Shown here: positions 6,558 through 12,334 of the stretch, piece by piece
Numbering within the stretch: the stretch's first letter is position 1
Layout of the letters: every line of letters begins with the position of its first letter
DNA from: Perna viridis
Lineage: Eukaryota
NCBI GenBank assembly: GCA_037379345.1
Contig: CM074521.1
Coordinates: forward strand, 20,546,704 to 20,610,703
Direction: 5' to 3'
Length of the DNA: 64,000 nt
Notes under the pieces: generated by a model
Told to the model about the DNA's origin: nothing
The model's database searches: none
Seen by the model: the letters and a program-made list of their open reading frames with translations, nothing else
Made by a program: the position numbers and the translations under genes

Positions 6558-9533
6558 ATGGGAAGGTTCGTCCTATGGATTATATTGTTAATGTGTATAT
6601 TATCCGAGTGCAGGACTTCCCATTTTAGTGCATCTAAATCGTCTAGAAGTGACAGTAGTAACAATGTTCCTAAACAAAGGGGAGGTAATTTTCATAAGCA
6701 AATTGTTGTGGGATCTAAACCTGGGATGACTAGTTTTTCGTTTAAATCTGCAATGACAAGTGTTTCATTTAATGCAGATCCTACAAAGAAGAAAAACCAA
6801 CCGCCCTCAGTGAGAGATAATTTAACACCGCAATCCGCAAACCAGCAACCGAATATTCCTCTGCCTAATATGAACAGAGGACTGCAATCACGTCCACAAC
6901 AACCTCCTCCAAGACGGTTTCAAGCTCAAGTACAACCATCTCAACCCCAAAAGATGCCGATACCACCGCAAAATCAGATTCGACCTCAGCCACCTGCTAA
7001 TCAAGGTTTCAATTTTCATTCAGTAGTTAGACCTGCACATAGTAGTAGTAGTAGTTACTATCATTCTGTACCTTATCCAGCGTATCATCAAGGTAATAAA
7101 TCATCTGCATTGCATGAAAGCAGGCGTAGTAATATAATCAATTCTAGCATTGTGGTAGTGGGAAATAAACATGCAGCTAGCAACAATAGTAATAGTGGCA
7201 TGGGTGGTGATGGACATATAACAAACATTGTGCTAAGCAAAACAGGAACGCAAGAACTTCTTTATGATGTAAAAACACAAGAGGGTCAATCGCAGCATAA
7301 CAATATGCGCTCTTTCAAGCGAAACTTGCGAGGAAATGCTTCGACGTTAAATTACATTGATGATAAGAAATCAGTAGCGACTGATTTGTATCAACAAGAA
7401 ATCGTTAACCAAATTGATATTTTGTTCGCAAAAATGCCTATATTCAGCTTCAAAAATGCGCATACTATATCTAATCACCCAACGGCTAAAGGAAATAATA
7501 ATGAGAATAAATTTTCAACATTTCTTCACAGCGTAGACCGTCTAGACCTTAGTATTCGAAAAAGTTCCAAGAGAAACTCAACTTTAGAAGTACAGCACTA
7601 TTATGAATCTAAACATTCTGGGCATAACGGGTTAGGCAAATTGTTGACATCAACACAGAGTCTACAGAGTATGTATACTCAAAAGCACAAACAAGAAAAA
7701 CCGGTTTTAAAGAAGTTGAGTACAGAAAAAAATTCGTGGGGCGAGACCAAAACATTGCCAATTGACAATGTTATAGCAATGAATGTTCTGTCCTTCCTAG
7801 ATACACAGAAAAGAGAAGACACGTCGTCTTATACCAAACAGTCTGGTCATTATATACTGTCGCATCCGTCCAATTCCACTTACTCCAAACAAGTAGATAA
7901 TTCTGCAGGATTGTATTCAACGAACAGGGTTATTTTATCGAATCCTGTAACTTTAAATGGCAATTTGAATCCTGTACAGTCATTTGTCGTTTCTCATCCG
8001 TTAAGTTCTAAGGTATATTCAACCTCAAACCATACGAATATTAATCAAGACAATGAAAGAACTATCAATCGTATTCCGAATGATAAGAATGATGAACATT
8101 TAAATAATTCGTCAATGTCACTTACGACCAATCATGCTGATAAGACTACCATGAAAACAACATTAAGCTACGTGAACAGTTCGGATATCGCAAGTGTCTA
8201 CGGAACTGAGAAAATAACTAACTCAGATATGAGAGAGAGTACAGATAACACCCTTAATAAGACTAAATATGTTTTAAGCACTATTCAACCAAACATCACA
8301 ATCAACGATATACAGACAAAAGAAAGATCGAATGTTAAATTTCCAAAGAAGTTGGATAAACTTTCTATTCCGTCAATGGTGAAGGAGGTCAAAAACACAC
8401 TACTTGAACCTGTACAAGAGCACAACAAAATGGCGAGAGGGAAACATTCTAAAATAGATTTCGAAAGAAAACAATTAAATATACCACTAAAAGGATTGAC
8501 TACAAATCTTGATTTAATCAAACCAAACGAAATTAATCATTGGGCAAATTTAACGACAGAACGAAATTCATCAGCGGACACCAGTCAATCTTCATTAACT
8601 TTATCTGATATCATTAATATTCATCATGCCGCTACACGGCTTGAAACTACTAAAGACATAACTATTCGCTTTGCTAGTAAAACGAAACCATCTTTGGGTT
8701 CCCATGACGACAAAGGAAATGGTTTTAACACTAAAAATAAATCAGAAATTTCAGGCATGGAAGAAACAACAACACAAAACCAGAACAATACGTCGACAAT
8801 GCCTTTAGTCATCGGAAATAATGTTTTTCAATCGGAAGTAAACTCTACAAGCAACGCCGATTTTAACTTGAGTTCTTTGAATAGTGTGATGCCTGAAATT
8901 CCGGATGAAACCTCACCATTTAATAAACAACCAGTGCCTTTGAGAAGCGATGTTTCAATAACGGTCTTTTATTCTAAAACTCAAAGTGAAAGTTCAACTA
9001 TGAATAAAACAAGCATAAAATCGCCAAAACAAACTTTTAACCAGCAAATACACTCAAAATCTGAATCAGGATATTCACCCAATAGTTTATTGACAAGTGA
9101 TATCTCAAATGCGGCTAACAGTGTTTCTACGCATACGCATACAATTCCACCTGACGCTATCTTGCCAAAAAGTCATTCATCCAAATTAGTTCGAAATCAG
9201 GTACCCGAACTCTCACCAATATATCTATTTAATAACAATATTGTAAAAACAGGTTATTCTGTTCCAGTACAAGTGACAACACCAACCACAACTGGACCAT
9301 CGATGCCATTCCCACAAACTGTCGAATCCATCGCAGCTGCTTACAGTACTGTTATGTCTCGTTTAAAGTATCCTTCTCAAAGAACAAAAGCCAATGTGAT
9401 AGATGATTGGAACACACACAATGGAATTTCCCTAAATAATGTTAAACCAACAAATCTAATGAATAATGAAGCTGTTTTCACTTATCTAGCTCCAGGCTTC
9501 ATGAACGTTGTGGATACTGTCGATAGTAGCTGA
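6558..9533 (+). CDS. Gene A: secreted low-complexity protein, 991 aa (Pro/Gln-rich N-terminal ~178 aa, then Ser/Thr/Asn-rich mucin-like region)
   Basis: 2.97-kb ORF in AT-rich DNA. Signal-peptide-like start MGRFVLWIILLMCILSECRTS. Acceptor ttctattttgtAG ends at 6545, 12 nt before the ATG. No Cys after the leader, many N-x-S/T sequons, AATAAA at 9860-9865. Confidence 0.85.
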   Translation: MGRFVLWIILLMCILSECRTSHFSASKSSRSDSSNNVPKQRGGNFHKQIVVGSKPGMTSFSFKSAMTSVSFNADPTKKKNQPPSVRDNLTPQSANQQPNIPLPNMNRGLQSRPQQPPPRRFQAQVQPSQPQKMPIPPQNQIRPQPPANQGFNFHSVVRPAHSSSSSYYHSVPYPAYHQGNKSSALHESRRSNIINSSIVVVGNKHAASNNSNSGMGGDGHITNIVLSKTGTQELLYDVKTQEGQSQHNNMRSFKRNLRGNASTLNYIDDKKSVATDLYQQEIVNQIDILFAKMPIFSFKNAHTISNHPTAKGNNNENKFSTFLHSVDRLDLSIRKSSKRNSTLEVQHYYESKHSGHNGLGKLLTSTQSLQSMYTQKHKQEKPVLKKLSTEKNSWGETKTLPIDNVIAMNVLSFLDTQKREDTSSYTKQSGHYILSHPSNSTYSKQVDNSAGLYSTNRVILSNPVTLNGNLNPVQSFVVSHPLSSKVYSTSNHTNINQDNERTINRIPNDKNDEHLNNSSMSLTTNHADKTTMKTTLSYVNSSDIASVYGTEKITNSDMRESTDNTLNKTKYVLSTIQPNITINDIQTKERSNVKFPKKLDKLSIPSMVKEVKNTLLEPVQEHNKMARGKHSKIDFERKQLNIPLKGLTTNLDLIKPNEINHWANLTTERNSSADTSQSSLTLSDIINIHHAATRLETTKDITIRFASKTKPSLGSHDDKGNGFNTKNKSEISGMEETTTQNQNNTSTMPLVIGNNVFQSEVNSTSNADFNLSSLNSVMPEIPDETSPFNKQPVPLRSDVSITVFYSKTQSESSTMNKTSIKSPKQTFNQQIHSKSESGYSPNSLLTSDISNAANSVSTHTHTIPPDAILPKSHSSKLVRNQVPELSPIYLFNNNIVKTGYSVPVQVTTPTTTGPSMPFPQTVESIAAAYSTVMSRLKYPSQRTKANVIDDWNTHNGISLNNVKPTNLMNNEAVFTYLAPGFMNVVDTVDSS

Positions 9534-10081
9534 TTCTGGACAAATGTATTTCCAAATGCTTAGCGCCTCTGATGTTGCTTCTGAAATGAACATATCGGAG
9601 TCAATAGACCTGTCTTCATGCAATTACATGTATAATTACGAATACACATAACGTTAACATTCAATAATGAAATCAAAAGCAAATGTGAGGATCATACATA
9701 GACATATCCAGTTAAGCTGGACAATCATAAAACGAATTGATTACAATGTAATGAAATATACGGACTGAAATCCCAATGCAGTTGAATACTCATTTCATAG
9801 CCCTGTTTATAAATTGGTTTTCTTTGTTCTGCAAAGTCTTGAAAAAATAGCGCACATAAAATAAACATGCCGAAATATAGATTGGAGAGGTCCTTTTTTG
9901 GTCAAAGAAATGTTATAAAATAAAATCAAAATGTAGGAAAAAAAAACAAAAAACAAAAAAAAAAACAAAAAAAACAAAAAAAAACGCTTTGATCGATACA
10001 AAGTGAAAGTACAATTCAATTTGAGAAATAATCTCCAATGGAAAACAGGTATTATTGAGTTTATCAACTGTCAATTTTAGA

Positions 10082-11168: not shown

Positions 11169-12334
11169 GGCCTCCGCATCGAGCTCAATTTCAACCTCCA
11201 CTCCCACAACAGCCTATAAGGTCCCCAACACATTCAAATTCTCAACAACAGCCTTTTAGACCACCACAAGGAATGCAAAGACCACCAATACCACCAAACA
11301 TGGTTGCCCAGCCACCTAGACGAAGAGCCCAACAAGTTGGCTCTAATAATGGTCAACAGATGATTCCACAAGCCTCTCAAATAAACACACCTAAACAATT
11401 CCCTGTTCAAGGTGTGCCTCCCCTGCAACGACCCGCGCCTCAATATTCTCAACCTATTCCACGATCACAACCATATACTGCCCTTCAAAAGAGCCAAGTA
11501 CAAATTAATCAGGTTCAGCCGCAACAATCTATGCCACAACCAGTTCAGCAACAAGTACTTCCTCAGCAGCAAGCACTGCAAACACCTCAACAACCGGTGC
11601 AAAAACAACTTCATCCTCAACCACCGGATCAACCACAACAACCACATCAACAACCGATGAATTATCAACTTCAGCCTCAACCACCTGTTCAACAACAACA
11701 ACCACCTCAACAACTGATGCAACAGCAACTTCAGCCTCAACTACAGATTCAACCACAACTCCAACCACAACAACCAGTACCTCCACAACAATCTCCTAAT
11801 CAACCGATGCAACAACAGCAACCACTTGATCAACAACAATCCGGTGTTGCATTACAACGACAAGCAGCATCATCAGCACAAAGTCCTGTTGTGGCATCTC
11901 AACCAGTACCACAAGCTTATTCACCAAGTGGTCAATACCAACAACAATTTTCTTTCCAACCTCAACCATATCAACCGGTCCATGCTCAGCAATCCGCCTA
12001 TCCCCAACCACAAAATCAACCGTACCAGGCACCAGCACATCAACAACCTCCTGTATATCAGCCTCCACAGTATCAATCTCCAACCCAGCAATCGACCCCG
12101 AAGACAACACCAAGGCCAACAACTCCAAAACCAACAACAACGACAACACCTAAACCACCTCCGCAGACTGAAGCTCCTGAGTATGAGGGGGTAGAGATTG
12201 AAGGTCCAACTCATGCCCCACCGCCGCGATATCACTCCGGTTCACATTACCAACAACCTTACTATCCCCCAACACAATCACCTGTTCAGGATTTCTTCAT
12301 GTTTTATCCAGTTTTTGATGCATTTTTCACATAA
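11169..12334 (+). CDS. Terminal coding exon: Pro/Gln-rich protein with Thr-rich stalk, TEAPEYEG motif and aromatic C-terminus (probable alternative 3' exon of gene A)
   Basis: Strong acceptor ttttttttaatttcAG ends at 11168. Frame is open from 11171 (PPHRAQFQPPLPQQP...) into the 353-aa ORF. No signal peptide of its own; phase 1 matches the donor CAAG|GTAATA at 7092/7093. AATAAA at 12382-12387. Confidence 0.85.

Follow-up and report, generated by a model that had tools for sequence, protein, structure and literature searches.

A long open frame inside an intron suggests a splicing-versus-polyadenylation switch in a Perna viridis gene for two predicted secreted proteins

We analysed a 64,000-nucleotide (nt) stretch of Perna viridis DNA (GenBank assembly GCA_037379345.1, contig CM074521.1, positions 20,546,704 to 20,610,703 of the forward strand; hereafter the window, with positions counted from its first letter) and describe a plus-strand gene that appears to encode two different secreted proteins. 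Open reading frame (ORF) A runs from the ATG at 6558 to the stop at 9533 and encodes 991 amino acids (aa), and open-frame analysis confirmed it as real, as a first-pass annotation of the sequence had held. An alternative intron (7006–11168, 4163 nt, GT..AG, phase 1) begins within this frame and leads to a terminal exon, exon B, with its coding part at 11169–12334. The remainder of ORF A, a read-through coding extension of 842 codons (7006–9533) rich in serine, threonine and asparagine (S/T/N), lies within that intron. The splice of a leader exon to the exon of ORF A, the splice from 7005 to 11169 and both open frames were observed directly.

Sequencing evidence was drawn from five of 24 listed runs (X1, X4, X5, X6 and X7), where X4 is a DNA-like run and X5 shows the same contig as X1 and is probably the same data. 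The run search flagged none of the 24 as an RNA source, and 17 contained almost none of the sequence words, which is neutral as evidence. The leader exon of the 5′ untranslated region (UTR; 3637–3684, with the acceptor at 3636 inferred) ends at the donor GACAC/GTGAGT (3684/3685, the slash marking the cut) and is spliced to position 6546, where ORF A's exon starts, in a second RNA contig of X1. The splice is read from the 58-nt loose 5′ end of that contig at 6546, whose 30 displayed letters match 3655–3684, and about ten further leader bases probably come from an additional exon. The shared part of exon 2 (6546–7005) comprises a 12-nt UTR, the ATG at 6558, a predicted signal peptide of ~20 aa, a conserved motif around GSKPGMTSFSFKSA and a block rich in proline and glutamine (P/Q, residues 100–149). 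It is covered by RNA contigs (6546–6685 and 6735–7003) and by raw reads of X6 and X7 in sense orientation. The signal peptide was predicted from hydropathy alone, with a peak at residues 4–18 of the N-terminus. High-copy interspersed repeats (700–930, 1936–2352 and 4800–5350) lie upstream of the gene and within its first intron, with many RNA reads on both strands.

The splice into exon B is seen in a 1295-nt X1 contig (depth 6.49), which aligns to 6735–7003 and then, without a gap, to 11167–12192. The joint 7003>11167 was read as skipping 4163 nt from GT to AG with the cut moved by +2, equivalent to an intron at 7006–11168, and is the sole splice seen across the 7005–11169 interval. This join keeps the frame and yields a 537-aa product, in which exon B adds a 388-residue tail to 149 shared residues. 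In X4 the joint is absent despite depth in all 30 bins of 5850–12750, with no single piece spanning the interval. An assembly artefact was rejected on this even depth and on the order of head and read-through frame, which is common to the homologues described below. A retrocopy was likewise rejected, there being no second copy of either gene end in the 723-Mb genome; a 47-bp second genomic match has no similar ORF there.

The donor used, AAG/GTTTCA, is weak, ranking 58th among the 141 GT sites of ORF A with a crude generic matrix. The first-pass annotation had placed the donor at 7092/7093 (AAG/GTAATA, 7093–7098, phase 1, matrix rank 4) and predicted a spliced product of 566 aa. A 7092–11169 join would give that length, but the RNA contig joins 7005 to 11169, and RNA depth is zero at 7005–7235 in X1, X6 and X7. 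A further donor had been suggested near 6684, where a phase-1 GT with the top matrix score does exist (GAG/GTAATT, 6685–6690), but it too has no joint. Use of both sites was rejected for lack of a joint in any of the five runs, at a depth too low to exclude it. The composition switch noticed close to the expected donor is real, with P+Q dropping from 0.52 (residues 101–150) to 0.08 (residues 151–200), but it falls at residue 150 and coincides exactly with donor 7005 rather than 7092. One X1 contig stops exactly at the strong donor 6685 and the next starts at 6735, a break that a cluster of variants or rare splicing may explain.

Conceivably, donors 6685, 7006 and 7093 together set how much of the N-terminus is kept, and both tails are made with no intronic polyadenylation. 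All three are in phase 1 and lie on glycine codons kept in the homologues, as is the Q-G-N encoded at the 7093 donor, and the contig end at 6685 would also fit. Against this, neither 6684 nor 7092 has a listed joint, and the contig continues across 11169 without a break, where a second common donor would be expected to split it, given how such contigs are built.

Exon B starts at a phase-1 acceptor (TTTCAG) at 11169 and stays open to the stop at 12334, within a P/Q-rich frame open from 11126. It encodes P/Q-rich repeats, a T/P stalk, an acidic motif and a hydrophobic end. There is no hydrophobic leader, the sole hydrophobic window lying upstream of the acceptor, and the earlier description of a leaderless P/Q-rich exon with a phase-1 acceptor was correct. 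A homologue is present in Mytilus edulis (CAG2232433.1 / A0A8S3TRQ6, 391 aa, E 5e-25, with 67% of residues identical in the best C-terminal alignment), matching exon B at both ends; unlike the gene here, it is annotated as stand-alone, without the signal peptide and shared N-terminus. This model starts seven residues ahead of the exon B acceptor position and has no hydrophobic leader. Such a headless start fits the expectation for a last exon with no leader of its own, and CAG2232433.1 is probably an incomplete gene model. The gene shape is one missed by annotation, the Mytilus model listing the headless second exon alone, and other bivalve secretome genes may be likewise split or lost.

The M. 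edulis annotation of a separate gene could also be taken at face value, with ORF A and exon B as two neighbouring genes, the former having a single coding exon, the latter driven by a promoter and leader of its own, and the joint being an occasional read-through chimera. Stand-alone large-exon secreted ORFs do occur nearby (at 16.2, 22–23.6 and 63.6 kb), and one ATG-initiated hydrophobic peptide that carries a weak phase-1 GT lies at 10478–10539. We consider two genes improbable, since the sole contig over the 5′ end of exon B comes from 7005 with a depth equal to that of the shared exon, RNA depth is nil at 10008–10931, all RNA stops at the donor, and the P/Q block ahead of the donor resembles exon B in composition. 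It had been foreseen that exon B might be spliced only from leader exons of its own. Instead it is spliced from the 5′ part of ORF A, and the leader exon at 3.6 kb feeds the exon of ORF A.

Homologues of ORF A were recovered by a full HMMER scan with two matches, of which P0005 (1095 aa) is real and P0006 a repeat-driven chance match that was dropped. A follow-up search returned four clusters of 906–1167 aa, including P0010 (1159 aa, 88% identical to P0005). P0005, P0007, P0008 and P0009 (1095–1167 aa) have the same order as P0010, namely a signal peptide, the conserved N-motif, a P/Q block and 900+ open codons, and P0005 shows 43% identity over 65 aa to the shared part of exon 2. The read-through tails of P0005, P0007, P0009 and P0010 differ in copies of a ~21-aa repeat and a 10-aa P-rich repeat, and the frame is always kept. 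The contigs of these homologues are probably mussel host DNA within metagenome assemblies.

The read-through extension, with colinear homologues P0005–P0011, stays open far longer than chance would allow. At its own base composition the chance of 842 stop-free codons is ~10^-27, hence the first-pass claim of a run beyond chance stands, although it gave the length as 813 codons. The other five frames carry 39–95 stops over the same region, and the codon-position bias of ORF A past the donor equals that of neighbouring large ORFs, unlike the remaining intron. Directly past the donor is a conserved island (7008–7574, residues 151–339) with a local alignment score of 150–151 against 45–47 ± 6 in shuffled sequences (shuffle maximum 82, both shuffle kinds); the neighbouring ORF C, as a control, aligned no better than shuffles. 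The C-terminus of the read-through form carries a conserved motif with a Y-x-x-P-G core (9465–9533) at the same distance to the stop in homologues. In an end-anchored ungapped comparison its last 22 residues rank first of 1074 in P0005 (score 36, next 12) and first of 1138 in P0010, and this match in stop register suggests that the frame is constrained up to its stop. Variants in X4 are depleted in the intron ORF (3 in 2528 nt versus 16 in 2759 nt of non-coding sequence; P = 0.004, substitutions alone P = 0.026), and all four X4 indels fall outside it. On alignment evidence the read-through frame is conserved at both ends, and together with the variant deficit the 842 intron codons look selected, in line with the original suggestion.

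Direct RNA evidence for the read-through mRNA is thin, and the much stronger evolutionary evidence speaks for it indirectly. RNA within the intron was sparse and confined to the ORF and the putative UTR that follows. In X6, about six of 12 reads (a count inferred from bin depths), or about three read pairs, lie at 8391–9083 and share the strand of the exon reads; X1 contigs cover 8259–8577 and 9693–9932. Within the stretch 7093–9533, proposed to be in mature RNA, coverage spans 8259–9083, with none up to 8159. Downstream of the stop, the read-through form has a putative 3′ UTR (9534–9937) that contains the AATAAA at 9860 already reported and a second at 9919; such hexamers are common, with eight listed in 9534–11168. 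The cleavage expected near 9880 is not supported, as the contig 9693–9932 (depth 2.3) continues past the 9860 signal and stops at a masked, A-rich genomic tract (~9938–9984). Beyond this, RNA depth is zero at 10008–10931, and no position with many molecule ends was found in the RNA runs examined. The spliced form had been expected to end at 12400–12700. X1/X5 contigs at 12488–12907, 12949–13303 and 13338–13511, with low sense depth in X6, instead outline a probable long 3′ UTR (12335–13511) that probably reaches beyond 13.5 kb. At 12382–12420 an AATAAA is followed within a few bases by ~29 genomic A, and RNA contigs run on past it.

These RNA data bear on two other explanations. The long form might keep the whole intron and end after exon B, and no mapped poly(A) site contradicts this, but RNA depth is nil at 10008–10931; formation of both tails without intronic polyadenylation, whether by such retention or by the several donors considered above, seems to us highly doubtful. 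Alternatively, only the spliced form is made now, the intron ORF being a relic or open for a non-protein reason and the intronic RNA being pre-mRNA or internally primed. This would account for a donor uncrossed by RNA, for intronic coverage that is sparse and not significant and for the A-tract that follows it. It sits poorly with 842 stop-free codons, with conservation of the protein at either end, stop register included, with homologue length changes that keep the frame and with the variant deficit in this species, and we give it little credence.

We therefore favour a single gene that makes both forms by a choice between splicing and intronic polyadenylation, with a probability of roughly 0.78. 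Where donor 7005 is used, 4.2 kb are removed and exon B joined, giving the 537-aa P/Q-rich protein. Where it is ignored, exon 2 would act as a composite terminal exon, with cleavage and polyadenylation after the AATAAA at 9919 or 9860, giving the 991-aa S/T/N-rich protein. The weak donor and long intron may let 3′-end processing compete with splicing, and the ratio of isoforms may vary by tissue or stage, so that switching would be regulated. Both products would be secreted via the common predicted signal peptide, with 149 residues in common. They are probably disordered extracellular-matrix proteins, the long form glycosylated (21 N-x-S/T sites occur in the whole 991-aa protein) and the short form a P/Q scaffold. 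A role of the shell, periostracum or mucus type is suggested by composition and neighbourhood.

Several observations weigh against this interpretation. The splice is supported by one contig (X1) only, with no raw read listed across the joint, and no read or contig crosses 7005/7006 unspliced, RNA depth being zero at 7005–8159 in X1, X6 and X7. All five intronic RNA pieces fall in the ORF or UTR, which does not differ significantly from uniform pre-mRNA (P = 0.08–0.17), and oligo-dT could prime internally at the A-tract (~9938). Residues 351–991 do no better than shuffles in local alignment, two of the three X4 variants in the intron ORF alter a residue, and the AlphaFold fold, from four sequences, is uninformative (pLDDT, the per-residue confidence score, of 25). 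Homologues of ORF A and of exon B sit in separate records, hence their linkage and splicing are seen only in this genome, and among proteins of 386–1229 aa none joined the N-terminus to a P/Q tail (four matches, all of the read-through type).

More speculatively, the gene may represent a conserved mussel switch, an idea we find possible rather than probable. One signal peptide and 149-residue head would take one of two material-forming tails that are unrelated to each other, the larger lying wholly inside the intron of the other. Tissue or life stage would set the choice, and perhaps that among three in-frame donors. In effect a single gene would do the work of two matrix genes, each cell producing one of the two materials.

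The surroundings are populated by large-exon, low-complexity and probably secreted genes over ~75 kb, which point to an extracellular-matrix role. Large single-coding-exon ORFs of this kind were observed at 16205–19747 (+), 22335–23654 (−), from 63661 onward (+, 629 aa, past the window end) and, as a 635-codon ORF, ~6–8 kb upstream of the window. Several neighbourhood ORFs end in short hydrophobic M/F/L motifs, and Pfam gave no family for two ORFs of the cluster, apart from one sub-cutoff match. The N-terminal T-run and acidic E-Y-E motif of the 63.6-kb gene (63661–63900) resemble the C-terminal motif of exon B (12100–12250); homology was no better than shuffles between exon B and this gene or between the tail of ORF A and ORF C. 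A tandem gene pair (36655–38901 and 44775–46850) combines a cysteine-bearing domain exon with an exon for a T-rich stalk and transmembrane-like segment, with an apparently degenerate third copy at 27489–27926 and no Pfam match for the first copy. A ~57-nt tandem repeat at 55602–56152 has open frames on both strands.

Wider searches added little. Neither exact look-ups (ORFs A, C and D) nor a word-indexed search with the whole of ORF A gave a match, Pfam gave no family in eight of nine proteins and a sub-cutoff match in the remaining one, and no named protein was found for the long form in sequence searches. For DNA around the homologues, no locus was confirmed in metagenome contigs (48 and 318 pattern matches), genome contigs (105) or viral contigs (147). 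The Atlas yielded nothing usable for P0005 and, for P0004, leads at 0.77 only. No paper on this gene was found in the literature covered, which excludes subscription journals and supplements, and these proteins could still be listed in proteome tables of shell or byssus.

Two known classes were considered and rejected for this gene. Exitrons have both splice sites in one coding exon and isoforms that share a C-terminus; here the acceptor is 1635 nt beyond the ORF A stop and the C-termini differ. Mucins combine tandem repeats rich in proline, threonine and serine with cysteine-rich, VWD or SEA domains. The 991-aa form, first described as mucin-like, suits that label in composition, but with S+T at 22%, P at 6%, two cysteines (both in the leader) and no Pfam domain it is not a domain-bearing mucin. 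LAP2alpha, whose tail is a separately spliced terminal exon and not a donor read-through, resembles the gene in its short common head and long private tail, and differs in being nuclear, vertebrate and unrelated in sequence. In this LAP2/TMPO product, 187 aa of common N-terminus and 506 aa of unique C-terminus arise by alternative splicing (PMC2063936). Proteins with repetitive low-complexity domains (RLCD) are described as having expanded and evolved independently in biomineralising animals (PMC7272335). Both forms here share with molluscan RLCD secreted matrix proteins a predicted signal peptide, biased composition, lineage restriction and the lack of a Pfam family or folded domain; unlike those proteins, they match no named family.

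Composite terminal exons offer a close parallel, the secreted and membrane forms of IGHM being the classic case of intronic polyadenylation. As in IGHM, one isoform uses an internal 5′ splice site (GT..AG, 7005–11169, in one data set) and poly(A) signals lie in the intron past a stop (9860 and 9919, with putative cleavage). The mechanism is already known and it is the size that is unusual. If both forms are made, this would be an extreme composite terminal exon, in which intronic polyadenylation makes the protein longer while exchanging almost its whole sequence, and a clean invertebrate model of competition between splicing and cleavage over a 2.9-kb distance. In PMC5928244, composite terminal exons, where the donor is ignored and sequence up to the intronic cleavage site joins the last exon, make up 1648 of 2675 assembled human intronic polyadenylation (IpA) isoforms, and IpA products are described as truncated proteins or non-coding RNAs. 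Unlike the isoforms set out there, the read-through form here would be the longer protein, with 842 new residues versus 388 and only 149 residues in common.

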